DNA from: Cyanidioschyzon merolae
Lineage: Eukaryota
Strand: one strand, 5' to 3'
DNA length: 64,000 nucleotides
Assembly: GCA_000091205.1 (NCBI GenBank)
Contig: AP006483.2
Made by a program: the position numbers and the translations under genes. Numbering within the stretch: position 1 is the stretch's first letter; every line of letters starts with the position of its first letter. Below are positions 664 through 62,520 of the stretch, piece by piece. The notes beneath the pieces were generated by a model, which had not been told where the DNA came from, made no database searches, and was given only the letters and a program-made list of their open reading frames with translations.

Positions 664-3360
664 TCACCAGTGCGTACCGCTCTGCGCTGACTTGTCGACT
701 GCCCCAGGCATCGACGTGGCTGACGAGTGCGTCTGGAGCAGTTTGAGCGCTTGACGTGGCTTCTCCTCAGGTGCACCCCGGTTACATTCGAACGTCTCGG
801 AACGCAGCGCATGCGTCGGCAGAGAGTCCGACACTGGTTGCACCCGACGGTAGAGGAGCAGCTCGTGCAGCGGAGCCTCCTCGGTTATGACGCACGGGCC
901 GAGCCAAACGGTGTCTCGGTTGTTGATGTCGACGTTGTCAGGGGATAACGAGCTTTTCAAAGTCGAGCACGCCGAGTCGATTCGCCAACGACACCAGTAA
1001 CCGGTCGGTAAGTAGACGCTTCGTCGACGCTGACCATAGGCGAGGACGGGTGCCACCAGCAGGTCTGTACCGATGAGGTATTCGTCGTCAACGCGGCTCG
1101 CGACTCCACTTAGCGGATGATCCGCGGTAAGGCGCTCATCCCAGCAGACAGGACGCACGATAGGCTCATCGTTCTGGAGTAGCGTGAGCAGGAGCGGAAC
1201 GATGGACGTTTCGCGAAAACGCAGGTATCTCCGAACGAGGTCGACGACGGTTTCAGAGAGTTCCGGATGAGGTGGTAGCAAGCGATCGAATAGTTGCGGC
1301 TGCAGAGAGAACTGCACACAAGGCATGGCGATGCTGGCTTGCAACCATCGAATATAGAGCTCTCGCAGCTGAGCGGGATCAGTCTCCAGAGCGACCTCAT
1401 CTGCATTACCATAAGCGTTTCCACCAATCATGTCGGGCATCACGACTTGGACGCCCAGTACGCTGACGGTCAAGGCGCCTGTGACGACACTCTTCAGGCC
1501 GTTATCGGTGCCCCATTTAGAGGATTTGTCGAAAAGGCGAACCACGACGGGCGCGAAGAGGCTATCAAACCAGGAGGTACGCACCTCCGCAATAGGGAAA
1601 CTTGAAGCCATGGCAACGTACTGACGCGTGTACTCGTTCTGCTGGAGTACTGCATCTGCGTCCAAGGCATCGCAGCGGAGAAGAGCGCTTGGGACAAAGG
1701 CACCTTCGCCGGCGTCGAACTTGAAGCCGTCGATTCCAGTTTCGTGTTGGAGTTGGCGGAGCTTGGACTGCCACCAATCCCGCGCTTCCGGTTTAAAGAC
1801 ATTGAGTAAATGACCCTGGCCTTGCCACCATTCTACTGGCCGTTTACCGTGGCCGAGAAGGAAGCCGCGGTCTCGAGCTTCGGCAAAGTTGGTACTCTCC
1901 TCGGTGATAAATGGCGGGATCCAGAGCGTTACGAGAAAGCCGCGGGCATGCAGGGCATCGACCAGTTGTCGCGGTTCCGGGAACTTGTTCGGATCGAAGC
2001 TTGTATCGCCGTAGTTTCGCTGCCACTTATCGTCTATCTCAATGATACCGCCCTGCAGGTCGAGCGAACGTAAGTTATCCGCCATAAGCATGACCTTGGT
2101 CGCGGTGACGTCGGCTTTCATTTCGGCCCAGGTAGACCAGATCACGCGCTCGATGAGGGCAGTGCTCTTCCAGGAGCGCTGCGGTGCGCCAAACCAGCGA
2201 CGCAAATGAGAAAACGTCTGGTCCAGTCTTGGTTCTGCTGCAATGAGCAGCTCAAGTTCTAGACGCTTTGCTCGCGCGGACCAAGCACAGAGCCGCTGGT
2301 CACCGCGAGTCGTGCCAGGCTGCTGCACGGGCGGGCACTGACGATGCGGTCGCTGGCGGCTGCGTCTCGTCTCGGCGTCCAGTACGGATGAATAGATCGG
2401 TATATAGACGTCCGTGGTGAACTTTTCATGGGGTATCGCCGGCTCCACCTGGGCATTCGACGAGACGTGTAAATCAAATGGAGGGTGCGGCATCACAACC
2501 GCTACCCCGGTTGAGGACAGGAGCACGGGAGAGAGCACCGAACCGACTCCACTGGGTGCATTGTCCCAGGTCACAAATGGGGTCGGCGGTAGCATTGCGT
2601 CCGACAGAGGCCACGTCTGATTTAGGAACTCACCTAGGCCGTACACCACCTTACCCTTAGGCTCGTTGAGCACATACGACCAACCGAGCAGTGACAATGG
2701 TTTCCCAGCACCTGCAGCCTGTTTTCCTGGTTCAGTACGCTCGGCTGTGAGACAAACGCGACAATCTTGACGGTCGCAATGCACTGCAATGGTAACCTCA
2801 ACAACGTCATCGGGGTCGGCTGCGTCGTGGTAGCGCAGACGAACACCAGCAGCTCTCGTTCTTTCGTTACATACGACCTCATTGCCGCCCTCGAACGCCA
2901 GTATTTTACGCTCAAATCTAGAGTTTCCGTCCTCCAAGCCCCAGAGCAACGAGCCGGTAGCGCAGAGCGCACCGTCTCGATATATATGGTACGTTGCAAG
3001 CGCCACCGTCACGCGTACAAGCAACTCGCGCGGCTCGTGCCGCAAAATGTACCACTCACCCGCACGCTCGGTAACTTTGAAATAGTTGCCTTCATATACC
3101 TCTTCTTTGACTTGAGTTTGCAGTACATTGGACTGTACCGCACGCGACAGCAGTGCGGCAGCGCCCACAGCGGAACTCAGTGTCCGGGCAAGCACGGTGC
3201 CGCCTGCAAACGCAGCTGCAACGTTCGCAGCTAACACGTCCGAGTTTCTCGGCAGCGACCCGCAATGCTCTAGTTTCTGAGCGTCGCCCTCCTGAAGTTT
3301 TTGGAAATCCTTGCTCAAAGCGTGCGCAAACACTGGTATCGAACGTGATACACCTTTCAT
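664..3360 (-). CDS. Glycoside hydrolase family 31 protein (alpha-glucosidase / MYORG-like), 898 aa
   Basis: Long ATG-initiated ORF. GH31-type catalytic region 'GIDGFKFDAGE', and 'IEIDDKWQ' and 'WIPPF' segments typical of GH31 barrels. Stop is TGA. Confidence 0.7.
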   Translation of the reverse strand: MKGVSRSIPVFAHALSKDFQKLQEGDAQKLEHCGSLPRNSDVLAANVAAAFAGGTVLARTLSSAVGAAALLSRAVQSNVLQTQVKEEVYEGNYFKVTERAGEWYILRHEPRELLVRVTVALATYHIYRDGALCATGSLLWGLEDGNSRFERKILAFEGGNEVVCNERTRAAGVRLRYHDAADPDDVVEVTIAVHCDRQDCRVCLTAERTEPGKQAAGAGKPLSLLGWSYVLNEPKGKVVYGLGEFLNQTWPLSDAMLPPTPFVTWDNAPSGVGSVLSPVLLSSTGVAVVMPHPPFDLHVSSNAQVEPAIPHEKFTTDVYIPIYSSVLDAETRRSRQRPHRQCPPVQQPGTTRGDQRLCAWSARAKRLELELLIAAEPRLDQTFSHLRRWFGAPQRSWKSTALIERVIWSTWAEMKADVTATKVMLMADNLRSLDLQGGIIEIDDKWQRNYGDTSFDPNKFPEPRQLVDALHARGFLVTLWIPPFITEESTNFAEARDRGFLLGHGKRPVEWWQGQGHLLNVFKPEARDWWQSKLRQLQHETGIDGFKFDAGEGAFVPSALLRCDALDADAVLQQNEYTRQYVAMASSFPIAEVRTSWFDSLFAPVVVRLFDKSSKWGTDNGLKSVVTGALTVSVLGVQVVMPDMIGGNAYGNADEVALETDPAQLRELYIRWLQASIAMPCVQFSLQPQLFDRLLPPHPELSETVVDLVRRYLRFRETSIVPLLLTLLQNDEPIVRPVCWDERLTADHPLSGVASRVDDEYLIGTDLLVAPVLAYGQRRRSVYLPTGYWCRWRIDSACSTLKSSLSPDNVDINNRDTVWLGPCVITEEAPLHELLLYRRVQPVSDSLPTHALRSETFECNRGAPEEKPRQALKLLQTHSSATSMPGAVDKSAQSGTHW

Positions 3361-3718
3361 ATTGGGAAAGCGTCAAGCGTACGAATGCTGGAATGCCACT
3401 GCATGCTCCGGAAACGTGAGGCGCAGCGAGCGCACGCGATGCCGGAATTTCGAATCGCCTCGGAAGGCGTCCGGCGGCGTCCATCGCAGCAGACACCCAA
3501 AACGGTACCATTCTGTACATATATACACACAAGTGGATCAATGACATCGAGCGATGGCCAAGTCGAATGCAGCTGCGATGCGCTGGCTGCATCGTAGGCG
3601 AGCATCATGGAGGGCGGTTTTCCGGCGAATGACGAACGTCCTCTGCACAGGCAGGTGCATGTATCCTAACGAGCGATGTGCACGTGGTAATGCTGCTGCA
3701 CCTGAATAATCCAAGTAG

Positions 3719-3757
3719 TTGCTGGTGCTGAATCGTTGTTGTTGTCGTTGTTGTTGT
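3719..3757. repeat. (GTT/GTC)n microsatellite
   Basis: gttgttgttgtcgttgttgttgttgtcgtcgtcgg; this produces the spurious poly-Thr/poly-Cys ORFs in the track. Confidence 0.8.
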
Positions 3758-3917
3758 TGTCGTCGTCGGAGTGGTATATCCGTGTATGGGTATCGCGAGG
3801 CAAGCGGTGCTCGAGTCCGGCGCGAAGATGCAGCTCAATCGCCAGCTGTTGGTGTATCCTGTCATGAATCGTTTGCACGACAATCGAGTCAGTGTAGAAC
3901 GGCAAGGGTCTGCTCAT

Positions 3918-5224
3918 TCGGGAGTACACACGAACGATTGGGATTCGTTCCGCTCGGGTGCCAACAGTGGCCTTTAAGGGGCCTTTATTCCACAAATGCT
4001 GTGTTCTCCTCTGTCTTGTATTTGGCTTTGCATACGCTGGTCTGCGACGCTCCTTCAGCTTCGTTATCAGCAGTCGATGGGTGTCGAAAGCGGCGTTCAA
4101 CGACCAATGTCGGTGCTTCCGCCTGTTGTCGACGCATTGCATGCAGGTGCACCAGTTACGATGCACACTTTGCTTGGCATTCTCGTCTCGTTTGAGCACG
4201 GCATCTGTGCACGCTTCGCACTGGTGGCACTCGACCGTCATTGGAGCTCCTCGAATGCTCACGAAACCTCCTTCTTCGAAGACGACCTCCAGGTGCGACG
4301 GGACTCGCTCCACCGCTCCTTAGGTGGCCCCGACGGGTATCGGGGGCTTCACGCGATAGACGTCTCCGTTTCCGCTGCTGAGGGATCCCGTCGACGATGT
4401 CGTTGTCCGCTGGACACTTGAGCGCGCGCTATTCCATTCGACAGAGTAATTGTGGAGCGCGATGCTTCATACGATGAAACAGGTGTCGAAGAGAATATCC
4501 AGGCAGCAGAGCAAATCCAGAGACTCAGATCCTTGTACGCTCCCTCTGTAGCGAGCGGTGACACACACTCCACTGACACCGGGCTCGCTGCGTAGACTCA
4601 GGTCCGAGTCCAGGGCCCTGTCCCCGTGAAAGCGGAACAGACGGGAGCCCCTGGAGACGTCTCTCATGCGTGGTACCATGCTGTTGTCGAATGCAGTTTC
4701 ATCGACAGCGGAGAAACCGAGCGTGATTTGATATTCGACCATGATCACTTACTCTAGGTGACATGTTCAGTGAATGTTCGACGTAGCGTCCTGAGGGAGC
4801 TTTCCAGAGTCGACGTCGAGCTTCTTTCCCTGGGAATCGAGCGACACGAATCGCAGCGCCCGCAAGTGCCCTTGAACCAGAGAGATCGGAAACTGTCAGC
4901 ATGCGTCATTGGCGCCTGCTCCACACGGGCAAAGGAAAAACCTGGAGGCCTCTGCATACGAACCGGATAATCATAGCGATTGGTGTACGAGCCCTGGTTC
5001 GAGTGCTTTGCGAATCACCTTGAGTCTGGTATCGTCACGAATGCCAGCGGTGAGCAGTCGATGCAGCCAGCTCGTGAGAACGACCGTGACACCTTTGACC
5101 ATTTACCAAACTCGTAAACTCTTATTACTGGACTTTGAATCTCGAGCCGGTGCACGTTGAGTTTGGAAACATCTAGAGTCAGGAACAAGCGAGCAGTTCA
5201 GGGCTCCGTATCTAGTCTGCTACA
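3918..5224. repeat. Inverted repeat copy A (~1307 bp); partner at ~11385-12691
   Basis: Six short ORF pairs in the track are near-identical in opposite orientation (e.g. 4909-5160(+) vs 11449-11700(-), 3996-4421(+) vs 12188-12613(-)). I read the boundaries directly: the outer edge diverges after '...gtatctagtctgctaca', the inner edge after 'gtgtgtactcccga'. Confidence 0.85.
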
Positions 5225-5576
5225 TGTCAGCGCAGCATCCTTCTCAGGTGGGTGCAAGTGCCGGCTGCAGGCATACGGCGTATGCGTTACAGCTTCCGTG
5301 CCGTGCGCTCTATTCTTGAAGCGAATGGTATGCGCTATCTCTGTTCAGTGTCGTCTCTGATCTGGGCAGCTGCTGGATTCTAGTGCGGACGCCACAGAGC
5401 CTTGCACCGTACCCAGGCTGTTTCGCACTGGCGGAACTGCCGCTAGAGGAGGTGCTTGTTGGAGCGCGCGGCACTTGGGCCTCGCTTGCTGAACCTGCTG
5501 CAGCTGGAGTGCACTCGGTGACTCCGCAGCAGCAGCAACGTCAACAGCTGCAGATAGGCAACTACATCAGAAGGAA

Positions 5577-7451
5577 ATGAGCAGTTCCGTGCGCTATGGG
5601 GCACTGCGGACGCTCCAGGGCGTAGCGGCACGTGGTGCGCACACTGCTGCTTTTCGCCAACAGTGCGGCGACCGAGGATCGCTTCTACGTGCCCTGGGGA
5701 AGCGCGCTGAGGCACCCGTCGCACAAGGCTGTAAGCAAACACGCAACGATGCAGAGTCTTGGCCTCGAGGTCTCGCTCGTGGCCCCGGCCGGGCGTTCTT
5801 TAGCAACCACACCGGCTACCAGGACGCGTACCGACAGCAGCGTGCTTCCGAGGTCGCCGCCGCAGAGGAAAAGGAGATGCTGCTGCTGAGGAAGCTCAGA
5901 CTAAAACTTACGAGGCCGGTCTCGCAGGCAACCGGTCATACGCATCCACATCTCCTGGACATAGACCAGGTTACACCTGGTATTCCACTCGCGGAGTATC
6001 GAGCGCGACGACAAGCACTGGCAGCGCTCATGCCGCCACATTCGCTGCTCATTTTACCCGCTGCTCCAGAGCAGTTTTACTCAATGGACGTTCCACATCG
6101 CTACCGTCAACACACGGACTTTCTGTACTTTACGGGGTGTCTGGAACCGCAGGCTGCACTCGTGGTCTACAAACCGCGCTCTGCTGCCGTTGACGCCTCG
6201 GCCATCGAGCCGGGCCCTCAACCGGATGCACTGCAAGCTGAGTTTCTCCTCTTCGTCCGCGCGAGAGACGCATCCCGGGAGCTCTGGGATGGCCCCATGA
6301 TTGGCATTGAAGACGCTCCGGCAATGTTCGGCATTCCCAATGTGTACCCAGTGGAGCGCCTGGGCGCTCTCGTTGCCGAGATTATGCATGGTGGCGAGCC
6401 GACTCCGCCGTCACTCTTCTTTGACGCAAATGTGAATTCCGAGTTCACGAAACGTGTGGGTACCGCTCTGGCACCCGACAAGTCCATGGAATCCGCCGCC
6501 GGCGCCGCCTGGCAGTCTTTTGCGTCGCGTCTGTGTTCACCGGTGCCTCTGACGCAACCGCTGCGGTTGTTCAAGTCACCGAACGAGCTCGCATTGATGC
6601 GTCGTGCCGCTGCAGTTACAGCGGATGCATTTATCGACGCGATGCAGCGCACTAGCGCCGGACTTGGTGAATGGCAAATCGCTGCGCGCATGGCCTATAC
6701 CATGGGGTTTCGTGGCGGCCCCAGCGCTCGCCTTGCGTTCCCCATGGTGGTGGCATCGGGTCCACGAGCCTGCACGCTCCATTATACGGAGAACGCAGCG
6801 CTACTGCAAAAACACCACATGCTCATGGTCGACGCCGGCGTTGAACTGCATGGCTATTGCAGCGATATCTCTCGTTCGTGGCCTGTCGATGGCCGGTTCC
6901 GAGGAGCTGCCAAGACCCTCTACGATATGCTGCTGAGCATTCACGAGGCTTGCTTGAAGCTCGCGCGGGAGCAAACGCACCCATCGCATACCGCTGGTGA
7001 TGTCGCCGGTGAATGCCGAGCGCCAGCGGCCAGCCTGGAGCACCTTCACCGAGTCTGCGTTCGGATGATTGCGGAGAATCTGTATGAACTAGGGTTTTTC
7101 GGCCGACGACACCGGGTAGATGAGATCATCGAGCGCGGTCTCTACGGACGGTACTTTCCGCATGCGCTCGGGCACTATCTGGGCATGGATACACACGACA
7201 CTCATCAGTTGAGCAAGGCGATTCCGTTTCGAGCTGGCATGGTGATCACTGTGGAGCCCGGCGTATACGTCCCGGTGGCAGATGGTGATGCACCAGCAGC
7301 CTTTCGAGGTCTAGGCATGCGCATCGAGGACGACGTGGTGATTCGCCCGGGCGGAGCCGCCCCGGAAATCCTCTCCGCGGGGATTCCTCTGCAAGCGCGA
7401 GATATCGAGGCGGTTATGCGTGAGATAGCCACGACAAGCGCGCACTATTGA
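5577..7451 (+). CDS. Xaa-Pro aminopeptidase, M24B family (mitochondrial XPNPEP3 / Icp55-like), 624 aa
   Basis: M24 'pita-bread' metal-binding motifs: 'HYTENAALLQKHHMLMVDAGVELHGYCSDISRSWPVDGRF', 'HYLGMDTHD', 'GMVITVEPGVY', 'GMRIEDDVVI'. The Arg-rich N-terminal extension is consistent with a mitochondrial presequence. ATG at 5577, TGA stop. Confidence 0.85.
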   Translation: MSSSVRYGALRTLQGVAARGAHTAAFRQQCGDRGSLLRALGKRAEAPVAQGCKQTRNDAESWPRGLARGPGRAFFSNHTGYQDAYRQQRASEVAAAEEKEMLLLRKLRLKLTRPVSQATGHTHPHLLDIDQVTPGIPLAEYRARRQALAALMPPHSLLILPAAPEQFYSMDVPHRYRQHTDFLYFTGCLEPQAALVVYKPRSAAVDASAIEPGPQPDALQAEFLLFVRARDASRELWDGPMIGIEDAPAMFGIPNVYPVERLGALVAEIMHGGEPTPPSLFFDANVNSEFTKRVGTALAPDKSMESAAGAAWQSFASRLCSPVPLTQPLRLFKSPNELALMRRAAAVTADAFIDAMQRTSAGLGEWQIAARMAYTMGFRGGPSARLAFPMVVASGPRACTLHYTENAALLQKHHMLMVDAGVELHGYCSDISRSWPVDGRFRGAAKTLYDMLLSIHEACLKLAREQTHPSHTAGDVAGECRAPAASLEHLHRVCVRMIAENLYELGFFGRRHRVDEIIERGLYGRYFPHALGHYLGMDTHDTHQLSKAIPFRAGMVITVEPGVYVPVADGDAPAAFRGLGMRIEDDVVIRPGGAAPEILSAGIPLQARDIEAVMREIATTSAHY

Positions 7452-10400
7452 AGCTAGTTTGGATCGCTCGGTAGACGCTCTTCTATCGAATGATGGAATA
7501 CTCCATGATTTTGGGCCAGTTGCTCAGGAAACGCCTAGTCGGTGTATGGATGCGGCGCTGGAGCCTTTCTTGTACGCTGAAACGTACCATACCGAGGCAT
7601 TGCCTGTGGCAAGCGTTCGATTCCACCTCTGCTGGCCGCTGCTATTTTTCCAACGGGATTCTGAGGTCACGTAGCACATTGCCCGCCCAGAGTACGAAGC
7701 GACGGTCTCGAAAGTTTGCTCTACAAAACGCTGCTCGACGCCCCGAATCCATGAGATACTTTTGAATGATGATCGAAGCGTTCAAGTCGGGGTGCAGAGC
7801 ATGCCAGCGCGCATCGTTGCTGGTGGAATCATACCGCACAGAGCCTCTGAACTTCGATTGTCTCGCCAACTGACGTTTGTTCCGTCGACCGTAAACTGTC
7901 TCGTGGACCCGTCTCTGTTTCATTGTTGTCTTCTCTGTGTGCCCCAGCATACATCCCGTGCTCGTGATACCTGTAGGTTATCCAGGACGCATCCAGGGGA
8001 ATCGTGCACAACCGATTCTTGCTATCGTTGGTCGCTCTCAGCCAGCAAGCAGGAGTGCACTTGCTGCGTGGACCAGGATGTATAGCGCAACGCGCGACTA
8101 GAAACCGACGTGACTTTTCGGCCAGTTGCTTTTTTTTAACGTACTGAATAAGTTGGTAGAGGCGCGCTTCCCGCCTCCGTTCATCCGAAATCGTTGGCGA
8201 TCGAAAGCGTGGTCTCGTGGATGCCTGCCAGGGATCCAGTGCATGAGCCATTGACAGGCTCATGGACTCTATTTGAGAAAAGTGTACAGTGCAGCTCGCT
8301 CTGCTCCGTATGTCGCTCAGAGCGTCGATACGGGTCCAGACGTCTTCACTAGACTTTTTGGTATGCCATCTGGTGTCTGTCGGGCCTGCTGCTCAATTGT
8401 ATCGAGCCCGGGAAGCGTCGAGTGGCCCCAGCTGCTCTCGGTTCACCTCTTTGACGCCGTCGTTTGGATTTGGAGGTACAGCGACGGAGAGGACGTTGTC
8501 CAGCCTGCGATCGAGTCCCATTGCAACGCGCTTATCTTCGATGAATTTGAACGGTTGAAAATGGGTATCGTTACGCGTCTAAGGTTGAGGGTTTCGCGCT
8601 CCTCATGAGGTGTATACTTATTGATATTCTCTCGCTCTTCATATTCCCTGCAAACTGCTTTCCATATTCTCCCTGGGAACAAGAAAATATGAATGTGCTC
8701 CGCCAATGCACTTCCAGAAGTTTAATGAATGCTCCTTGCAGTAAAGCATGATGTGCGGCGATGGAACGGGCCTTGAAAGGATCTCTGGAATAAAATCGAA
8801 GTCAAGCTTGATGAGGATCGGGCGCTCGGACTCGGGAATGCGTCTGCTTTGGCTATGGAGGGCTCTTCTTTAGATCTCTTTGCAATGTACGGCGCAAGGT
8901 GGGCGTCATGTTCCGAGCATCCTTTGGATATGACGCATCTCTCTGTGTGCGAGGCGGGACCGTACACTATGAGCTTGGACGAGGTGAGTCGACTCTCGCT
9001 CTGGTCGCAGCATGTGTTCAGAACTCGCTACCATCCCGAGCGCTTCTGGCACCACCAGCTCGACACTTGCCTCCGTCGACGCACCGCAAGTGCCTTGCAT
9101 CAGAGCCCACATTTTCGGACCAGGATTCTGAGGGTTCGAAGCTCACAGGATGCATCTCGTGAAGCGCTCGAGACTGAACCGCAATTAAGATCGGATGTTG
9201 AGGTTCGTTTGATACGTTTTCACAACGGCGTTGTAGATATACCGATCGACGACGTTTTGTGAAGACGCATCAGGTTTATTTGGGGAAAGCGTGTCCACAA
9301 AAACGCGGATCCTACGACCAAGCGCCTCTGCAGCTCCAGTACTGCGAAGCGGTTGTGTTGCCGCACTAGGGTTGAATCGAAAAATTTCAAAGGAATGTCG
9401 ACAGCGGGCAGCCCGGTTCCCCAAACTGAAAGGAACAGTTGCTTGATGAGGTCCGTCAACGCGACGGAGGCTAGAGAGGACTTGCTCGGGACGGAGGAGG
9501 AAGCGGCTTCGTCGATAGTTGTGTCGTGCATCTCCATTTTCGTGCACATTCTGTCTGTTGGGATGGTTTACTGCGGCGATCTTGGCCAACCTTCCTCACC
9601 GATGTATATCCGCTCTGACAGTTTCCTCTTCTTGGTTCACCTCGTCATGTATTCCGAACGATTTCTGGCTTGATTGTCCGTTTTTTTCTCGTAGTTCTTC
9701 TCTGGCATCTCCTGGACTCGGTGGGATGACATGCATGTGGGCGCGATACCCCATATCCACTTGTTCTTCGGGATTCAGACGTATTGGGTGAATGTTTGGA
9801 ACGCAGCTTGCTTTCTCCGTTGATGCGCGTACGGGTTTTCACCAAAACATTCTCGTCATCTTCAACGTCAAGAATACACCCATAGACCGAAGCATGCATC
9901 TCCGCTCCCTCGCAGGCGCGAGCAAAGAAGCAACAGCATCTTTCAGAGCAGGTGGAGTTCGAGCAAAACCCGCCAAACAACCTCGATGTCTCAAATGCGA
10001 ACGAATTTTCTATGGATCCCTGAGCGTACAACCGGCTTTTGACGATAGAAAAGGCTCGTTGGAATGAAGTCGACCCAGGGCGACAGGCTGATTCGAAGGC
10101 CAGCTCAACGCCAATGCCAGCTGCGAGCTCCTTGAAAGATTTCGAGTCGTGCAGAGAGATGCTGTCGAAGAGCAGGAAGTACGTAAACAGTACTCTGTCA
10201 CGAAGAATGCTTTGATCAAGGATGAGGCGCTGAAAGATGCTGTCTGTTCGGTGGTTCACTGGCGAATACACCACTGAATCGCCATCAGGGCGGTTGGTGT
10301 CGTGATTCTCGCTTGCCGCTTCCTTACGAACAGTTATTTGTTCGAGCTGAGAGCCCACATACAGGTCTAGACCGTTTCCGCCGAATCAGGTCTCATCGAG

Positions 10401-11384
10401 TTGGACGAGCATTCCAAGTCCTGTGATGAGCGTTCGGGTTTTCGGTTTGCAGTCGGATGTGTGCTGGTCAATACGCGATCGTCTTCCACAGAAGCGCGCC
10501 TTTGATATCGTCTATGCAAGCCTCTTTATCATCGTTAAATTCGATGGCAAACAAATTCACATGTTCCACCTTCCTTCCCAGTGCTGTCTGGAGAGCGTTT
10601 GCTTTCGACTCGTTCGACACGAAGAGGATCGTGTGGATCGAGGTTGATACCCCTCTGTTCGGAATGCACCATGTTCAGGGCACGGGCTGTGCGAAAGCTC
10701 TTCATCCATCCGTTGCTCGCAGAATGACGGACTCGTGGAATTGAGATCGATTCCTGCAAGCTAACGGTGATAGCCTACATTCCTCCCGCGACATCTCTTC
10801 AGCCTGCGAGAAAAAAGTCCCATCGCCCAGTACCCGCGACAGAAAAGAAACAAAACAAATGAAGCGAGCTGGTACCGGCATTCTAGGATTTACTGCCCGC
10901 AGATCGAATGAGCATAGCAATCTCTGGGAATAAATGTATCGTTCAGAATGTAATGGAGTATGCTCATACGAAGCAGACTAGCTTGCTTTCGTTGTCTTTT
11001 CTCTGGCACCAGATCGGATGACGTGAACACGTCTGTTCCGCAACGTGCTGGAGCGCGGCCATCGTCTGGACAAGGCATCTAGACATGTCGCTCTGGATCC
11101 AGAGACGGTACGTTTGTACGTTCACGACCGCGTAGGTCGATCCGTTTCGCGGGCGAACGTCCGCAAGCGCATCGCAAAGCCGTTCCATGTCCATGCGATG
11201 CTCACGAACAGGACTGGTACCCGCAGGGTGGTCGCATTCGTCCAGTCATTCTCGCCGCAGGCATCACTGCTCGAGGCGAGCTAGCACCCGGACGGTTCTG
11301 TGGATGAGCAAAAACCTGTTCCTATGCTCGTGAGAAAGTTCATACATCCCGGGGGCTTGCCAGACTCATTGATGCACTCTACTT

Positions 11385-12691
11385 GTAGCAGACTAGATAC
11401 GGAGCCCTGAACTGCTCGCTCTGTTCCTGACTCTAGATGTTTCCAAACTCAACGTGCACCGGCTCGAGATTCAAAGTCCAGTAATAAGAGTTTACGAGTT
11501 TGGTAAATGGTCAAAGGCGTCACGGTCATTCTCACGAGGTGGCTGCATCGACTGTTCGCCGCTGGCATTCGTGACGATACCAGACTCAAGGTGATTCGCA
11601 AAGCACTCGAACCAGGGCTCGTACACCAATCGCTATGATTATCCGGTTCGTATGCAGAGGCCTCCAGGTTTTTCCTTTGCCCGTGTGGAGCAGGCGCCAA
11701 TGACGCATGCTGACAGTTTCCGATCTCTCTAGTTCAAGGGCACTTGTGGGCGCTGCGATTCGTGTCGCTCGATTCCCAGGGAAAGAAGCTCGACGTCGAC
11801 TCTGGAAAGCTCCCTCAGGACGCTACGTCGAACATTCACTGAACATGTCACCTAGAGTAAGTGATCATGGTCGAATATCAAATCACGCTCGGTTTCTCCG
11901 CTGTCGATGAAACTGCATTCGACAACAGCATGGTACCACGCATGAGAGACGTCTCCAGGGGCTCCCGTCTGTTCCGCTTTCACCGGGACAGGGCCATGGA
12001 CTCGGACCTGAGTCTACGCAGCGATCCCGATGTCAGTGGAGTGTGTGTCACCGCTCGCTACAGAGGGAGCGTACAAGGATCCAAGTCTCTGGACTTGCTC
12101 TGCTGCCTGGATATTCTCTTCGACACCTGTTTCATCGTATGAAGCATCGCGCTCCACAATTACTCTGTCGAATGGAATAGCGCGCGCTCAAGTGTCCAGC
12201 GGACAACGACATCGTCGACGGGATCCCTCAGCAGCGGAAACGGAGACGTCTATCGCGTGAAGCCCCCGATACCCGTCGGGGCCACCTAAGGAGCGGTGGA
12301 GCGAGTCCCGTCGCATCTCGAGGTCGTCTTCGAAGAAGGAGGTTTCGTGAGCATTCGAGGAGCTCCAATGACGGTCGAGTGCCACCAGTGCGAAGCGTGC
12401 ACAGATGCCGTGCTCAAACGAGACGAGAATGCCAAGCAAAGTGTGCATCGTAACTGGTGCACCTGCATGCAATGCGTCGACAACAGGCGGAAGCACCGAC
12501 ATTGGTCGTTGAACGCCGCTTTCGACACCCATCGACTGCTGATAACGAAGCTGAAGGAGCGTCGCAGACCAGCGTATGCAAAGCCAAATACAAGACAGAG
12601 GAGAACACAGCATTTGTGGAATAAAGGCCCCTTAAAGGCCACTGTTGGCACCCGAGCGGAACGAATCCCAATCGTTCGTGTGTACTCCCGA
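11385..12691. repeat. Inverted repeat copy B (~1307 bp); partner of 3918-5224
   Basis: Reverse-complement match to copy A along its whole length, with about 1-3% substitutions inferred from amino-acid differences in the paired ORFs. Confidence 0.85.
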
Positions 12692-13864
12692 GTTAACCAG
12701 GTACCCCGCTTCCATTTCCTTCCGACATGGGTTATTGTGACCTCGAGCTGTGACCAAGTGTACGGCACGATCGTGCTGACCATCGCGATACATTCACTTT
12801 CACATCGCTCGGGTATTCGTTTAGGACGACTGCATCCTCTCGCTGCATTGCAAACAGAGAGAATTGTTCTTTTGCTGCACATGTTTGCGCACACTGTTCA
12901 AGCACCCAGAAAGCGACTTCATCAGACGCTTTCCGCTGTTATACCCGGTGAGCAGTGGGAGCGGCTCTGCCGCAACGAAGGCGTCTACCCGGGGACACTA
13001 TCGCGGTACGAGCCTGCTCGCGTGAGTCTAGTTGGTACTCCGCGACCAACGGAACTGCATATCACGCCCAGAGCCGAGGACAGGGACTCTGCTTGGGTTA
13101 TCCTCCGCAAACCCGGCGATCGGGATGCAACGCAGTTCTACTCACGCGCGCTGGATGCGTCTACGCTGGCACAACAGGGCATGGTCTACGCCCAGGACGG
13201 CTCTTTCTGCTCGGGAAGCGTGTTGGTGCGCTCCGGGGAAGGTGGCCTCAGTGCGCTCATCGTTGAACAGAACATAAACCACTGGGAGTCGGGGCGTATC
13301 GCAGCAAGACGACGCGTCGTCGTACATTATAGGGGCCGGGAGCTCTCAGCGCTTTCGCTTTATCGCGAGCTGGACCAGAGTGACTATGTAAGTGAGCGAC
13401 CGAGAGCTAAGGATTTTGTTCGCTTGCTTGAAACAGGAACAGGAGCATGGCAAGGTCGAGCAGCGTACGTCTATGCCCGTGATCAGCGGAAGGATGCCCA
13501 CTTCAACACGGACGCCAGTTTGAGCATCGAGGAGCTTTCAATGGATGGTGTTGATGCTGGTGTTCCAGCGGTTGTTACGCGAGTCGCTGCACCCGGTTTC
13601 GAACGCGTCTCTCGGGGGCGCCTCGATGAGAGCCAGAACAAAATCGTTTTCGATCCTATTCATCCGAATCTGCAGTATCAGATGCGTTTTCTCGGGAGAG
13701 ATTGCACAGTATTAGCACCGCATGCCGTGCCGCTCGGTCAAGCGTTTCTCGTAGAATTCGCGTGGCTTGTTCGACCTGGTCTTCGAAGAAGAATCGTCAG
13801 GCAGTATGACTCCGATGGCATGTACGAGGGATCCGTCTTCATCGAGGAAATAAAGCAACCCTAG
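12296..13864 (+). CDS. Hypothetical protein with a Cys/His-rich N-terminus (CHQCEAC...C-x-C...C) plus a basic stretch; first ATG at ~12368; 522 aa from the GTG start
   Basis: Longest ORF in this region. The first 133 codons lie inside IR copy B and are duplicated (then truncated) in copy A as ORF 3666-4313(-). No recognisable family. The codon-1 'M' is GTG in the ORF track. Confidence 0.4.
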   Translation: MERVPSHLEVVFEEGGFVSIRGAPMTVECHQCEACTDAVLKRDENAKQSVHRNWCTCMQCVDNRRKHRHWSLNAAFDTHRLLITKLKERRRPAYAKPNTRQRRTQHLWNKGPLKATVGTRAERIPIVRVYSRVNQVPRFHFLPTWVIVTSSCDQVYGTIVLTIAIHSLSHRSGIRLGRLHPLAALQTERIVLLLHMFAHTVQAPRKRLHQTLSAVIPGEQWERLCRNEGVYPGTLSRYEPARVSLVGTPRPTELHITPRAEDRDSAWVILRKPGDRDATQFYSRALDASTLAQQGMVYAQDGSFCSGSVLVRSGEGGLSALIVEQNINHWESGRIAARRRVVVHYRGRELSALSLYRELDQSDYVSERPRAKDFVRLLETGTGAWQGRAAYVYARDQRKDAHFNTDASLSIEELSMDGVDAGVPAVVTRVAAPGFERVSRGRLDESQNKIVFDPIHPNLQYQMRFLGRDCTVLAPHAVPLGQAFLVEFAWLVRPGLRRRIVRQYDSDGMYEGSVFIEEIKQP

Positions 13865-15019
13865 TTGAATTCGGCATGGCGCGTTACGCGGGCTTGTAAC
13901 AGCAGACACCAGTCGCGTGCACGAGATGCGCACCAGCTTTTCGGCTGGACGTTTTGACGTACTTGACACGGTTTCAGGTCGTTTTCATCATTCATTTGCT
14001 GACGTGACGAGTGAGGGCTTCTCGGACATTGTAGCGGCTCATGGCTCTGGTGCACGGAGCACACGTACCCCGGAGCTCGGCCATGCTGCGTAACTGTGGC
14101 CGTTCGCGCGCCGACGCTTCGAGAATCAGGGTACTGCTGCCGACGAAGTTTCTCTGGTTCGGTGCGGATTCGACGAGTGGCGACCTCGGGGACGACACTC
14201 GGCCTGCTCAGCTTCATTAGAGACTGTCTTGAACACTTCGCATAGACCTGGAAGTTTTCCACATGGCGAATCACTTTCTACGCAGATACAGAGAAGCTTT
14301 TGCGCTGGATCTGGTGTCTCTGGCATGTTGCGGAAACCTTTTGCCGCACTCCACTGTAATTGATTTGGGCGTCCTTCCAAGATGCGTTTTCCGTGGTACC
14401 ATCATCGGTTCAGGGCCGCAATGCGAACCAGCTGAGAAGCAGGCACGAGAAATCCCTCAATATGCGCGCTGGCATAGCCTGTGTACTGTGCATCGTGCAG
14501 CAGCGGCTTTTGGACACAGTTCCAGGGAGCTCCTGCTCGGAGATGATGCTCCCAAACGCACACACTAGAGCTCGCACGAACGGCGCCATGGACAGCAAGA
14601 CAACCGATCGAATCACGGAGAAATAGGGTTGTTCACGAGGCACACCAACAGTCATTAAAGGGAGTCTTTCATCAAAGGTGGTCGAAACAGATTGTGCGCT
14701 GGTGTCCTGTCCTTGTCGTTCCCGCCCGCGCGATGCGACATTGACACCCCTGAGGCGTCCCGCTAGGTATCTAGTGCTTGTCCGCGCTGTATTTGAGATC
14801 AAGTTCCTCTCCTTGTGCTGTACAGTCTGAAATCGCGTTATCAGAGACAGTTAGAGATGAAAGTGCAGGAATCGAGCAATGCCGGGGGTCCCATAGCGTA
14901 GCTCCGTCCTGGTCATGCCTACGGTTGAGGAGCAGGCATCCAGGCAGCTGCCCTGTTACTTGTCGCATGCTTTATTGGTGTTACGCACGACGGGTGTTGC
15001 TACGCCCTCTTCCAACAAA

Positions 15020-15293
15020 CGACATTGCAAGCGTTTCATCGAGTAGACTCCTTGGATATGTGACGCTCCATGGCTGTGTTTCCATTGAACGACATTGCAA
15101 GCGTTTCATCGAGTAGACTCCTTGGATACGTGACGCTCCATGGCTGTGTTTCCATTGAACGACATTGCAAGCGTTTCATCGAGTAGACTCCTTGGATATG
15201 TGACGCTCCATGGCTGTGTTTCCATTGAACGACATTGCAAGCGTTTCATCGAGTAGACTCCTTGGATACGTGACGCTCCATGGCTGTGTTTCC
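15020..15293. repeat. Minisatellite: 70-bp unit x ~3.9 copies
   Basis: Unit cgacattgcaagcgtttcatcgagtagactccttggata[t/c]gtgacgctccatggctgtgtttccattgaa repeated head-to-tail, alternating T/C at one position. Confidence 0.9.
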
Positions 15294-16087
15294 AAGTGAG
15301 CCCGATCGCTAGAAGACTGCAGCGTGAAATGCCAAGCAGGGAGCCGCTCCTGGAGCGCTGGCTCTGGCTAATGTTCGAAAGCAGCTTTCGTCTACTGTTC
15401 GGAAGACTGCTTCGACGAGTGCTTGCACTCGCACTCCCACGCAATCGCTCTAAGCGAGTCAGCAGCCCAGAGAGGTGCCGGACCAGGGCCTAGAGCCCGC
15501 CTTTACACACGGAAAGAAGCGCTCCTAACAATTTGTTCTAGAAGGTGCTCCATGAGCACGTCGTTCTTCTACACGAAACCCCGGGTTGGCCGCTTTCGCG
15601 TTCATACAGGGCTTGAACGAGACTCGCGCCCTTGTACACGCGTAACGCGTCAGCTTCCGAGGAAACTTCTGCTCGATTCCAAGTCCTCACCTCGAGGCGT
15701 ATGCTAATCACGTGGGTAGTCTCGTTCGATGCGAAGAATCTCAACCGTCTCGTACCGAGAAGCACCGCTACAGAGTCGGTAACACTAGTCCAGTACGGAT
15801 CCATCCTGAACGCTTTTTACGCGTTGCGCCTGTTATTTTTTTGCTTGAGGGTTTTGGCTCGCAACTACTGTGTTTTCGACACGCTGGCCTGGGGAGCGAA
15901 GGTTGTGCTTGGTACCTGCACCCTGCCCGATATACAAGGCGATTGCAGCTGTGCGAGTCCTCGCAGGCGTAGAGTCTCCCGTCCATGCGACGGAAAGCGT
16001 GCCTCTACACCTGACTAGGTACTTGCGGGGAGTTTCGGAACAGCGTCGACGCCCGTGGACCCAGGTTAGGCGTCGTTCTGAAAAACC

Positions 16088-18775
16088 ATGATGCGGTATA
16101 GTGCTCCGCTGCGGTTGCAGCAAAGCTCGAACACATCCAAGCGTAAGAAAAGCGTGCTAGCGGGTCTGATCACGAGTCACCTCGGCAAACGAGGACTGGC
16201 TGTGATGTCGACGCGAAACGTGCTGCTGCTCACCACGGGCTCAGCACTTGCTAACGGATCCGCGGTTCTAGTACAAGCCCTGGACTCAAAAGCAGATACT
16301 GACGCCCTCACAGCGTCCTACTCGGCGTTGACGATAGGCGACGAGGCGAAAGCACCTAGCCAGGAGTTCAGCGCGCAACGATCGGTCTCTGTGTTGCTCT
16401 GGTTCGACGACAACGTCGCTCCGAATGCCCTGGTTGTAGACCCGGAAACCTATCGGCTCTTGAGCGGTCCCTCGACCGAGCGGGACGCTCCATGCCCGCC
16501 GCTAGCACGACTCGCCTACCTGGATGCAGGAGCGAAGCCATCGACATTATCCGTATCGGAACTGGCAGCGATCCCGACCGCTCGAAGCATCTACTGCACG
16601 ATGGAGGAGACAACGGCAGCGCTGCTGCGACAGCGAGTTGATCCTTCGGTCGACATACGCACCGAGCTCGTGCGACACATACGCTGGAGCGCCGCGGGTC
16701 GTCTGCTCTGCCAGGGCGGCTGGCTCGTTGGTGTACCTTTCATGGGCGTTCTCTTGAATATCTGCATTCGGGGCGTGAACATCCGGTTATCCCAGCGAAA
16801 TGCAGCAATGATTGCGGACAGCGACGCAGCAGGTGTCACTGGGGAGACTCGCGATGGTTTCCAGCTCGACGCGCGTACTCGTATCATGCTGCAGACGGAA
16901 CCGTTGCGGACGTGCTCTGTGGAGGGCGCTCCAGCGCTACACACAGAGCACGCTTGCATGGAACGGTCTTTGAACGGTAGCGCAGCGCATTCTCTTCCAG
17001 AAGCTCGCCTTGAAACAAGTACACACATGTTGTGGGACACACTCCCGGGCAACGCTGAGGCACGAGCAATACTCCTCCGCGCCGCTTTGGATCTCTTTCG
17101 TGATGCCGCCCGGGATCACGTATTCCGTATTGAGGGAATACTTTTATGTGGACCCAGCGGGATAGGAAAAACCACCTTAGGACAAGCGCTGGCACGCAAG
17201 TTGCCTGCCCACTTGGAACTGCTTCGTTGCGCAACGCTCGCGGGACTCGGAACGCGTCAGATCCGACACCGCTTCGAGGAGGCCATTGAGTTGGCCATCA
17301 TGGACGCGCCCAGTGTGCTACTTATCGATGACCTTGACGCCCTATTGATGCGTCGAGATGCGTTAGATGCATCCGAAGAGGTCGAACGCACAAACGCGAT
17401 GCTTCTGCGCTTTTTCATGGACCTCCGCTCACACGAAAAGCGTCTGGATATCCGGTTACCTGATGGATCAGGAGCGGTGCTGGTTGTTGCCACCGTTCGT
17501 GAACGCGCCAGTGTGGACCGCGTCCTTGGCTCGAGCGGCTTCTTTGGTCTAGAGGTAGCGCTGCGTATGCCGGATCATTCAGAGAGACTCGAAATCCTCC
17601 AGAACCTGACGAGCGGATCGTGTCCGGATGCCTCTGCCGTTCTTCCAGAGGTAGCTGAGCAGACACGAGGCTTCACAGCAGCCGACTTGACGGCGCTCTG
17701 GAGGCATGCGTCGTTTGCAGCATGGAGCCGACGCTCGGCAACGAATTCCGATGCAGACGCTGTAGATGCGTCGACCGGTGAAGCGCCGCACCCTAGCTCA
17801 GCTGACTGGCGAGAAGCGCTGGTCGTCACTCGACCCAGCTTCGCACCAGACTGGTCGTTGGAACGGCCTGTTACGCGCTGGTCCGATGTTGGTGGCCAAG
17901 CGTATGCCAAGCGCGTGCTGCAGGAGACCTTGGCGCTCCTGCAGGGCAGCGCGAAAGCACTGGAGGCACGCGGATTCCGCCTGCCCCGCGCCATCCTGTT
18001 GTACGGACCTCCGGGCTGCAGCAAAACGCTGCTCGCTCGTGCTGCCGCCGCTGAGAGTCGTCTACCCATGCTGATGGTCCGAGGCCCGGAACTCTTCAAC
18101 AAATACGTGGGCGAGAGCGAAAAGGCAGTGCAACGCGTATTCCAACGTGCTCGTGCCGCCGCTCCATCGTTGCTCTTCTTCGACGAAATTGACGCTCTGG
18201 CCACGAATCGTTCCCGAGCGGCTTCCGACGGATCCACGGGAGCAGAAGAGCGTGTTCTTGCGCAACTCTTAACGGAACTTGACGGTATTGATCCACTCCG
18301 CGATGTTGTGGTGCTCGCGGCAACCAATCGACCGGATCTTTTGGATGAGGCGCTTCTACGACCCGGTCGCTTCGACCGGTTGGTATACGTGGCATTACCG
18401 GAAACGGAGGAACGTGAGCATATCCTCGCGATTCATCTGGGGAAAGTGCCTCTCGCTATGTCAATGCAAACCTGTGGTTCAGATGCTTCGACCGCTGCTC
18501 CCGCAACATCTCGAGAGAGGCTCTGTGCGGAGCTCGCTGCTCGCACCGAAGGCTACAGTGGTGCCGAACTCGCTGCGCTTGTCCGAGAGGCATGCCTGCT
18601 GGCCATGGAGGAGAATCCAGCGAACGCCGACTGCATCCAGCCGTACCATCTGCTGGAGGCGCTGCAGCGTGTTCGCCCGCGAACAGACCCGAACCTGTTG
18701 CGTGTATATGAGCGCTTTCAGGCAACACCACGGGGTCAGCGCTCCTTGTCCAGACTGAAAGCATCCAGCAGATAG
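16088..18775 (+). CDS. Type II AAA+ ATPase, PEX1/PEX6-like (peroxisomal biogenesis factor family), 895 aa
   Basis: Two AAA modules. D1 has Walker A 'LLCGPSGIGKTT' but a degenerate Walker B 'VLLIDDLDAL'. D2 has canonical Walker A 'LLYGPPGCSKTLLA' and Walker B 'LLFFDEIDALA'. A degenerate D1 with a canonical D2 is the PEX1/PEX6 pattern. TAG stop. Confidence 0.65.
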   Translation: MMRYSAPLRLQQSSNTSKRKKSVLAGLITSHLGKRGLAVMSTRNVLLLTTGSALANGSAVLVQALDSKADTDALTASYSALTIGDEAKAPSQEFSAQRSVSVLLWFDDNVAPNALVVDPETYRLLSGPSTERDAPCPPLARLAYLDAGAKPSTLSVSELAAIPTARSIYCTMEETTAALLRQRVDPSVDIRTELVRHIRWSAAGRLLCQGGWLVGVPFMGVLLNICIRGVNIRLSQRNAAMIADSDAAGVTGETRDGFQLDARTRIMLQTEPLRTCSVEGAPALHTEHACMERSLNGSAAHSLPEARLETSTHMLWDTLPGNAEARAILLRAALDLFRDAARDHVFRIEGILLCGPSGIGKTTLGQALARKLPAHLELLRCATLAGLGTRQIRHRFEEAIELAIMDAPSVLLIDDLDALLMRRDALDASEEVERTNAMLLRFFMDLRSHEKRLDIRLPDGSGAVLVVATVRERASVDRVLGSSGFFGLEVALRMPDHSERLEILQNLTSGSCPDASAVLPEVAEQTRGFTAADLTALWRHASFAAWSRRSATNSDADAVDASTGEAPHPSSADWREALVVTRPSFAPDWSLERPVTRWSDVGGQAYAKRVLQETLALLQGSAKALEARGFRLPRAILLYGPPGCSKTLLARAAAAESRLPMLMVRGPELFNKYVGESEKAVQRVFQRARAAAPSLLFFDEIDALATNRSRAASDGSTGAEERVLAQLLTELDGIDPLRDVVVLAATNRPDLLDEALLRPGRFDRLVYVALPETEEREHILAIHLGKVPLAMSMQTCGSDASTAAPATSRERLCAELAARTEGYSGAELAALVREACLLAMEENPANADCIQPYHLLEALQRVRPRTDPNLLRVYERFQATPRGQRSLSRLKASSR

Positions 18776-31569: not shown

Positions 31570-33204
31570 TAGTGAGGTTGTGTACGAAGCGAACCGCTGG
31601 AGTACGCAGTTACGCCCAAACTTGACCGGAGCCTCTGGCCCGCTTGCCCTGCTCTTATCCCGGTTCGCAGAAGCGTTCTCGCGTGCACAGCGTTGCCACC
31701 ACGTGGAGAATAGGAAACCGGAACGCTGAACAACTGGCTATGCGCTGCCTCGGGATTTGTTTTGCGAACTTGTTTTCCATGCAGAGTTTTGATATTCACA
31801 GTGAAGCTATAAGCGTTGACAGACTCATGCGTGGTTTGTGGATTCTCGGACGTCTTTTCGGAGTGGTTCATTCGACGGTTTGCTGTTGGAACGTGTGATG
31901 TCAACGGAATCAAGATGACTCGGTACGCTCTCGAGCACGGGTGCATGAGATAAGTGATTTGATTAAGCTGTTCATACTTGCAAGCCTCTATGATTCTCAT
32001 TTCCCTCCGTATACCATGCTCAAATGCCGCATGCTTCAATTGTTTGGAACAGTTCGTTTTGAGGCTGCTCGTAGGGCAGCTATCTGTGCGGACGCACTGA
32101 CGAGAAAAACTTCAGCGTCGTCATATGCGGAATCCTCCACAAGTTCAAGGAAAACGTTCTTCGAGACGAGCACGTCAAATCATCGATCTCGTTCGGAAAG
32201 ACAAACCTTCATCTCTTTGCGGCCATCAATGAGATGGACATCGACACCCGGCTGATTCCCCTCATGGGATATGCGTCAAGACGCCCCCGTCGCTTCTTTT
32301 TTGCACGGCAGAGCGCCTTGAACTCCGAATGCAGTCACCACAGCCATCGCTTCCGATGTCGAGTTCGGTACCGTGTTGCACGAAGCGAGCATGCGAGGAT
32401 CGAAAATGCTCCGCATGATTTCCGATGTTGATTCTTATTCGGTTACTCGTTTCATCATGGACGACATCGTGTTCTAGAAATCCTGTATCGAATGGACCAG
32501 CGTTCGCTACCCTCTGCAGCAGATAGAACAGGCTCAAAAGGGATCGCCCAGAAGAAAGCACGCGATCGAGGGATATCGTAAGGGGTACGGCATTGGGGAG
32601 GCGCTTCGAGGAGAGGCCCCACGGACGTGTTTCAAGAGCATGCATCAAGCGATGATATGAGTCTTCATGCGCCACAGGGCAGCGCCCGACGGTGGAGCTG
32701 TTGTTGAGCTTTCGGAAATACTGTCTATAGCAAAGTGTAACCGCTGCGGGGAGTGCACTGCAGAAGTAGGCAAAGGCGTAGAAAACGGCAAGCAAAGCGT
32801 AGCTCGCGACGAACTTCGGTACCTGAAAAATGTCGACAACAGCTGGAAGCTGCAAAATCGCGATGTTTCTGCTTCCATCAATACCTTTTGACTCCAAGCA
32901 ATAGAGCTGAAGGGAAAGAAGAGCCCGGCGTGTTTCATGCCAAAGCTCAACGGGAGAGGAAAACAATGCAGTTGAAGAAAAATCCGCCAGAAGCTAGTGT
33001 CGATGACAGTGGACAGTGATACAAACTTCAGCATGGACGCCCGAGTTGGCTGCGTGCGCCTTGCCCATTTCATTCGAACATGAGTATAACGCATCCGGCA
33101 TTCTACAGCAGCGATGACACCACATGGACAGGGACGAAGGATCTGGGCCCTAGACGATCCGCAGCGTTGCACGACGTGCGCACCTTGCGTATCCAGCCCG
33201 CTTC

Positions 33205-33370
33205 CCCGGATGCCTCCATGAAAACCATCATCGGGTATGTACCATGCATGGCGATGATGCGTTATTCAGTGAGAGGGAAATGCAAGCCTGCACGCCTTGC
33301 CCGAACGCCTCTATGAAAACCATCATCGGGTATGTACCATGCATGGCAACGATGCGTTTATCAAAGAACC
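33205..33370. repeat. Two direct copies of a ~60-bp segment with ~83 bp periodicity
   Basis: 'cctc[c/t]atgaaaaccatcatcgggtatgtaccatgcatggc[g/a]a[t/c]gatgcgtt' appears twice (~33215 and ~33298). Confidence 0.7.
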
Positions 33371-62271: not shown

Positions 62272-62520
62272 CCACTAGTATTCGTAATATTTGCGACACC
62301 AAGCTAGCGCCATAGAGACAACTTCGCAGTGTAATGCGTTGGTCAGGTGCAGCGGTTTCGCACGCCCACTGAAGGCATCGCTGCAGCGGGTTGCAACAAC
62401 TAGTATTTGTAATATTAGCGACACCAAGCTAGCGCCATAGAGACAACTTCACAGTGTAATGCGTTGGTCAGGTGCAGCGGTTGCGCATGCCCACTGAAGG
62501 CATCGCTGCAGCGGGTTGCA
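62272..62520. repeat. Tandem duplication of a ~125-bp unit, 2 copies
   Basis: 'actagtattcgtaatatttgcgacaccaagctagcgccatagagacaacttcgcagtgtaatgcgttggtcaggtgcagcggtttcgcacgcccactgaaggcatcgctgcagcgggttgcaaca' is repeated immediately downstream with ~6 substitutions. Confidence 0.85.

Follow-up and report, generated by a model that had tools for sequence, protein, structure and literature searches.

A stretch of 64,000 nucleotides (nt) from chromosome 1 of the red alga Cyanidioschyzon merolae 10D (contig AP006483.2; hereafter the window) contains two copies of a 1.3-kb sequence, here called R, in opposite orientations on either side of a segment that carries an aminopeptidase P gene. The two copies, arm A (3918-5224) and arm B (11384-12691), lie between a GH31 alpha-glucosidase-like gene on the left and a BFA1-like gene on the right. 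Most probably, this is an inverted segmental duplication that is specific to the locus and has a chromosomal micro-inversion between its arms. It is a new example of a structure already well described in other eukaryotes, found here in a genome that is poor in redundancy.

The arms are reverse complements of each other in a MAFFT alignment and in a comparison of 15 repeat copies from this window and related contigs, which was also used to set the limits of homology. In 10D they differ by 16 substitutions and one 1-nt insertion or deletion (98.7% identity), and a chance match of this size cannot be the explanation. The repeat finder reported a pair at 3918-5187 / 11422-12691 (1270 nt, 99%), continued past the 1-nt length difference at 5188-5227 / 11381-11420. 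This arm pair was the sole inverted repeat of at least 60 nt within the window, and no third copy was found there. Similarity dropped abruptly at both arm ends when the flanks were included in the pairwise alignment, and repeat position 1308 was T beside the aminopeptidase flank and A beside the distal interior in every contig compared. An initial annotation, made from the sequence alone, had placed the reverse-complement copies almost to the base, had estimated 97-99% identity from twin open reading frames (ORFs), and had proposed a diverged local pair rather than an assembly collapse. All three proposals agree with the measurements: the ORF twins at 3996-4421(+) and 12188-12613(-) are real, each 141 amino acids (aa) long with 2 differences, and the arms differ at 17 positions. 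Another ORF, 3666-4313(-), has its first 131 aa in common with a 522-aa ORF at 12296-13864 and diverges from it from the repeat boundary on. It had no Pfam match, and its 10D version was not found in the protein collection.

In the window and the metagenome data, a survey that excludes the rest of the 10D genome, R occurs as a local pair and does not form a dispersed family. A 32-mer taken from an invariant part of R had four matches among 241 million metagenome records, and all of them were this locus. The ORFs in R belong to protein clusters about as large as those of the single-copy genes on either side. A dispersed multi-copy family, which the initial annotation had named as the finding that would overturn its reading, was thus looked for in both ways and not seen.

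The gene order in relatives suggests how the arms came to lie apart. In 10D, the aminopeptidase gene is oriented towards the BFA1-like gene at a distance of 5.4 kb, and one R copy is upstream of each. In a relative whose aminopeptidase is 70% identical (contig L012), the two genes are head-to-head, with BFA1-like(-) and aminopeptidase(+) separated by 725 nt. In another relative (L014), the BFA1-like gene (+) is followed by an AAA gene, the same as in C. merolae. The two contigs fit the order aminopeptidase(-) / BFA1-like(+) / AAA(+), which is the flipped order and not that of 10D. Judging from one short contig per relative, the segment 5225-11383 appears to be inverted in 10D relative to an ancestral head-to-head aminopeptidase/BFA1 order. 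Were the aminopeptidase and BFA1-like genes of C. merolae head to head, R would be the central 1.3 kb of a 1.85-kb spacer. The arms and the relatives' gene order both support the inverted segmental duplication that was one of the two structures first suggested for this locus.

We propose that R was ordinary unique DNA in the middle of the ancestral aminopeptidase P/BFA1-like spacer. The segment that holds the aminopeptidase gene together with 3.9 kb of gene-free DNA would have turned round in 10D, so that one R copy travelled with the aminopeptidase gene and is now beside GH31, while the other stayed with the BFA1-like gene. The joins of R to the aminopeptidase (arm A) and to BFA1 (arm B) would then be native, and those of GH31 and of the distal interior to R would be new. 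The simplest origin might be one inversion whose breaks were staggered to the two sides of R, which would leave an inverted duplicate of the breakpoint sequence. Alternatively, a second R may first have been inserted beside GH31 by duplication, and homologous recombination (a crossover) between the copies would have followed. The arms behave as substrates for homologous recombination, and crossovers between them would invert the 6159-nt segment; under the two-step origin, at least one such inversion would have taken place, and it may recur. The two-step and single-inversion routes seem equally compatible with the sequence, and a choice between them would be an inference on our part. C. merolae integrates DNA by homologous recombination (PMC12874030).

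The closest known counterparts of this structure are the inversion-mediated breakpoint duplications found in Drosophila. In the Drosophila melanogaster group, inverted duplications of unique breakpoint DNA, from 46 bp to ~1.9 kb, are coupled to inversions (Ranz et al. 2007, PMC1885836). As in those cases, ancestrally unique DNA of one breakpoint is present, inverted, at both ends of the inversion; the arm size is inside the reported range, one copy retains the native junction with each original neighbour, and a single event would explain both the duplication and the inversion. However, the Drosophila duplications have a mean identity of ~88%, while the C. merolae arms are 98.7% identical and undergo concerted evolution. 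The C. merolae inversion is also very small (6.2 kb), its break mechanism is deduced, and the organism is a red alga with efficient homologous recombination.

Gene conversion has occurred between the arms. All 17 differences between the 10D arms lie inward of the outermost 372 nt, in which 17 columns vary among the 13 environmental copies, and the probability of such an empty stretch under a uniform spread of 17 differences was ~0.003 by our own calculation. The identity of the outer 372 nt points to a recent conversion tract or crossover. At position 272, both 10D arms carry C while 13/13 other copies carry T. Furthermore, identical inner-end haplotypes, defined by single-nucleotide polymorphisms (SNPs) at most 200 nt from the boundary, were beside the aminopeptidase flank in some contigs and beside the distal flank in others. 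The 10D arm pair and the SNPs within ~200 nt of unique flanks are the robust data for exchange, and they make evident the recombination between arms that the first reading of the sequence had expected.

Divergence from 10D was 2-2.9% in bins wholly inside an arm, the most divergent part of the region; elsewhere, the aminopeptidase and BFA1-like genes differed by 0.1-0.7%, and most bins of the interior by 0.4-1.2%. Such a peak would be expected if paralogous variants are shuffled between the arms. No orthology signal was found between the arms of different strains, as paralogous arms were as close as positional counterparts. This fits concerted evolution, although the metagenome arms may be a collapsed consensus. 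The highest value of the interior, 2.4%, was in the bin 9501-10000, around an ORF at 9645-10358. The bin 3501-4000, which includes the first 83 nt of arm A, showed 2.9%, so the spacer between GH31 and arm A has diverged as much as the arms have. A GTT/GTC-rich, microsatellite-like run is at ~3735-3770 in this spacer (3501-3917).

Environmental contigs of this locus were located through population variants of its proteins. Contigs ~99% identical to 10D were present in several JGI, ENA and Logan samples, an identity that resembles the divergence level between 10D and the Yellowstone strain MS1 (0.71%; PMC13353863). Junctions were counted on contigs that run through the entire repeat into unique DNA at either end, in assemblies that are apparently short-read and in which 1.3 kb is not phased. 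The 10D-type junctions were GH31-R-aminopeptidase on five contigs (L002, L017, L018, L019, and L021) and distal-R-BFA1 on one (L023). The flipped-type junctions were BFA1-R-aminopeptidase on two contigs (L001 and L003) and GH31-R-distal on another two (L009 and L022). All four junctions of both isomers were represented, in different samples, and a further 7492-nt contig with a BFA1-R-aminopeptidase junction was inferred from shared cluster records. On balance, these data slightly favour an orientation polymorphism in natural populations. The initial annotation had suggested that the locus may exist in two orientations in a population; the junctions of both isomers speak for it, and the apparently short-read assemblies keep it at the level of a suggestion. 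In one of the flipped-type contigs (L022, JGI 3300053659, 1364 nt), the R copy is without ~335 nt (R positions ~412-747), which is either an arm deletion variant or a mis-join.

Several points weigh against the history proposed here. The ancestral order comes from one short contig, L012, of 3.7 kb, and no nucleotide homology to R was detectable in its spacer; R may therefore be a later insertion and not the ancestral single-copy spacer. A more distant relative (L011) has different aminopeptidase neighbours and does not polarise the change. The uniqueness of R covers the window and the metagenomes, not the rest of the 16.5-Mb C. merolae genome. The mosaic SNP patterns may partly reflect collapsed arms in environmental assemblies. 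Finally, 10 contigs end at or in the repeat (L004-8, L010, L015, L016, L020, and L024), with L010 made up of the two arms and the interior and nothing more, and the assembly graph is identical for both orientations, so the flipped junctions could be assembler choices.

The last of these points lead to the alternative that survives best, a static inverted duplication with occasional gene conversion and one fixed orientation, in which the flipped junctions would be assembly chimeras inside the repeat. It is possible, if less likely than the history proposed here. Apparent short-read graphs cannot phase a 1.3-kb repeat at 98-99% identity, which suits the ten contigs that stop there, but the two complementary flipped junction types came from four different samples, of different projects and years. 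L002 (10D-type) and L003 (flipped) are identical over the inner ~900 nt except for one site; their differences are almost confined to the outer ~400 nt, the pattern that a graph switch would give. Against this, one haplotype group was assembled alike in 4/4 samples (L017, L018, L019, and L021), and graph traversal was therefore not simply random. The 10D-type junctions are in the majority (6 vs 4), yet the flipped-type adjacency is that of a sister species, which shows that the lineage has had this order.

If the segment does invert, it works like other inversions between inverted segmental duplications. At human Xq28, the FLNA-EMD region is inverted by non-allelic homologous recombination between such duplications. 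Both loci have high-identity inverted arms around a short gene-bearing segment and gene conversion that homogenises the arms, and in both, populations are expected to contain the two orientations without much, if any, effect on phenotype. The human arms are ~10 kb or more, whereas those of C. merolae are 1.3 kb and the polymorphism is seen in apparently short-read contigs. Plastid genomes and the yeast 2-micron plasmid form flip-flop isomers via inverted-repeat recombination, and these likewise differ in the orientation of the enclosed unique region. However, those molecules are multicopy and extrachromosomal, and the 2-micron plasmid has a dedicated recombinase; the C. merolae locus is nuclear and single-copy, has no recombinase, and gave no evidence of equimolar isomers.

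It is very unlikely that the aminopeptidase gene and the gene-free DNA were brought in by a mobile element, either a composite or foldback transposon with the arms as its termini or a dispersed repeat of which the arms are two copies. Long inverted ends around a cargo do resemble foldback, composite and other long terminal inverted repeat (TIR) elements, and the interior is partly lower in guanine plus cytosine (GC) content. But the 10-nt outer flanks, GTCTGCTCAT and GTTAACCAGG, are unrelated, which means that a target-site duplication is absent. Neither the repeat ORFs nor the gene-free interior had a transposase, a reverse transcriptase or any Pfam domain. The R 32-mer occurred at this locus only, though the metagenomes hold long contigs of the same alga. 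Moreover, arm B at its outer end and arm A at its inner end pass without a break into DNA native to the upstream regions of the BFA1-like and the aminopeptidase gene, respectively, and these two genes are neighbours in a relative. The genome itself is poor in such elements: the finished telomere-to-telomere 10D genome has 34 transposable elements only (~0.7%) and no LTR (long terminal repeat) elements (PMC1955436). The foldback/TIR-bounded unit that the initial annotation had offered beside the segmental duplication is thus not supported, given the lack of a target-site duplication and of a transposase or other domain, and given arms of locus-specific, native upstream DNA. An LTR pair or LTR retrotransposon was also considered and rejected, as the copies are inverted and without reverse transcriptase or integrase.

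Inversion between the arms would leave the same DNA immediately upstream of each gene. In either orientation, GH31 keeps 557 nt, the aminopeptidase 353 nt (the distance from its ATG to the inner end of arm A) and the BFA1-like gene 190 nt, plus the same arm end. Therefore, judging from the coordinates, a flip is probably neutral and is predicted to leave expression unchanged. GH31 has a copy of the BFA1-facing end of R upstream of it, in the same direction, and a copy of the aminopeptidase-facing end points into the gene-free interior; each copy is a putative promoter. The arms include the upstream, presumed promoter-bearing, DNA of two genes, and both orientations may coexist in nature, as a programmed invertible switch for aminopeptidase, BFA1-like or GH31 expression would have it, comparable to bacterial phase variation or 2-micron FLP. 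We regard such a switch as highly improbable. Nothing points to a regulatory purpose, and there is no recombinase gene in or near the unit: the inside gene is an M24 aminopeptidase only, and the neighbours of the segment are GH31, BFA1-like and Cdc48-like AAA genes. Furthermore, the arms are long generic homology and not short recombination sites, and the proximal upstream sequence of each gene is unchanged by orientation. A recombinase-independent version, in which a recurrently flipping nuclear segment has a regulatory effect and homologous recombination drives an expression switch in a near-minimal genome, is also very improbable. If true, the flip would decide whether the duplicated BFA1/aminopeptidase promoter region drives GH31 or a non-coding interior transcript. 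The fragility of inverted repeats depends on the spacer, and the hairpin or cruciform formation that the initial annotation had raised is therefore unlikely for arms 6.16 kb apart.

Although repeats are classic places for assembly errors, a mis-assembled reference, with a single copy only or a wrong orientation in the 10D record, is extremely unlikely, since 17 positions distinguish the arms, the 10D genome is finished from telomere to telomere, the 10D orientation recurs in L023 (across arm B) and in L002, L017, L018, L019, and L021 (across arm A), and an 8.8-kb contig from a separate assembly (L010) has both arms and the interior, so that the arm-pair structure is also in independent assemblies of unrelated samples and is not an artefact of this record.

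The genes of the locus are listed in Table 1. By exact-sequence look-ups, GH31, aminopeptidase P, BFA1-like and AAA ATPase are BAM78804-78807 of C. merolae 10D chromosome 1, on a record of 422,616 bp. These accessions are consecutive, and therefore no protein gene is annotated in the arms or in the 3.9-kb remainder of the interior. The XPNPEP3-like gene that had been predicted between the repeats was confirmed by its AMP_N and M24 domains and its accession.

Table 1. Features of the inverted-repeat locus in the window (ORF, open reading frame; positions are those of the window)
Feature	Position	Strand	Length	Remarks
GH31 alpha-glucosidase-like gene	664..3360	-		BAM78804.1; left outer neighbour, upstream region abuts outer end of arm A
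Truncated twin ORF	3666..4313	-		Not a gene; duplicated upstream DNA running into unrelated sequence
Arm A	3918..5224		1307 nt	Outer end towards GH31 gene, inner end towards aminopeptidase gene; inner junction, to aminopeptidase upstream DNA, native; outer junction, 3917/3918, novel join
Enclosed segment	5225..11383		6159 nt	
Aminopeptidase P (M24, XPNPEP3/ICP55-like)	5577..7451	+		Pfam PF05195 and PF00557; exact match BAM78805.1
Gene-free, lower-GC part of interior	7452..11383			No annotated protein gene
Arm B	11384..12691		1308 nt	Reverse complement of arm A; outer end continuous with BFA1-like upstream region; inner end to distal interior, novel join
BFA1/DUF3598-like gene	annotated 12368-13864; homology-supported 12881..13864	+	498 aa	BAM78806.1, 100% identical
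Cdc48-like AAA ATPase	16088-18775	+		BAM78807.1

Beyond the aminopeptidase gene, the interior consists of 3.9 kb at 48-55% GC. No Pfam domain was found in 12 ORFs of the interior and arms, Rfam had no match in either (the window at the gathering threshold; 3300-13000 at E<=1), and ARAGORN called no tRNA in them. A hidden gene in the 3.9-kb gap was considered and rejected, as domains are missing, relatives have its longest ORF in truncated form, and gaps of similar size are common in the window. This ORF, 9645-10358(-), has 237 aa and no domain, and it was found in 237-, 204- or 51-aa versions in environmental contigs. The ~4 kb of ORF-poor DNA that had first been pointed out is thus indeed gene-free, but it is not a peculiarity of the locus, since gaps of 2-5 kb are present throughout the window. 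Other large ORFs of the window encode zuotin, SAC3/GANP, Tim17 and a CCCH zinc-finger protein, and these are intronless, typical eukaryotic nuclear genes.

The BFA1-like gene probably starts with the ATG at 12881, which lies 190 nt beyond arm B. PF12204 and PF21053 cover only the C-terminal ~300 aa of the product, the orthologues are 324-332 aa long, and homology begins at ~12881-12893 (12881 with L014 and 12893 with L012). The N-terminal extension at 12368-12880 has no counterpart in these orthologues. The ~171 N-terminal residues of the 498-aa BAM78806.1 are probably spurious, read from arm B and the adjoining spacer, and the reference annotation of this protein therefore looks over-extended.

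The contig of the more distant relative (L011; ENA ERZ1300892, 91 kb) shows 53% identity, has 65% GC and is intron-poor. It has a block in common with the window at 21.2-31.6 kb, consisting of RPS24e, Tmemb_14, two unknown ORFs and Y_phosphatase2, and its aminopeptidase gene is directly upstream of RPS24e. With such changes of neighbours, several rearrangements therefore separate the lineages.

Other repeats were seen outside the locus. Between the BFA1-like and AAA genes, a 70-nt tandem repeat is present in 4 copies with 98% matches (15018-15294); environmental contigs have ~2 copies (L015 and L024) or ~10 (L016), and in L016 the gene callers made a run of 47-aa ORFs from the array. Two further repeats are intergenic: a 125-nt tandem duplication (62274-62520, 2 copies, 95%) and two 68-nt direct repeats with 95 nt between them (33201-33363, 88%). 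At 37299-37366(+), there is a borderline Rfam tRNA match (29.6 bits vs a gathering score of 29) that ARAGORN did not call. This tRNA candidate has the anticodon loop CUCAUAA, i.e. CAU, and a weak acceptor stem. The tRNA genes of C. merolae are unusual and include permuted and intron-rich ones.

No description of this repeat was found in the literature searched, including the 2007 C. merolae genome paper, in which the word 'inverted' is absent, and the available part of the 2026 Plant Cell paper. In that part, the latter reports one inversion between 10D and MS1 Ha3, with no coordinates in the text.

C. merolae serves as a model precisely on account of a nuclear genome that is nearly free of redundancy and recombines through homology, and a gene-bearing segment between 1.3-kb inverted copies is therefore a natural substrate of a rare kind there. 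The locus could be used for measuring the rates of intrachromosomal recombination, gene conversion and inversion. Gene targeting and mapping at GH31, aminopeptidase P and the BFA1-like gene on chromosome 1 call for caution. Moreover, the locus may be a structural marker of natural lineages, such as those of Italy and of the metagenome populations.

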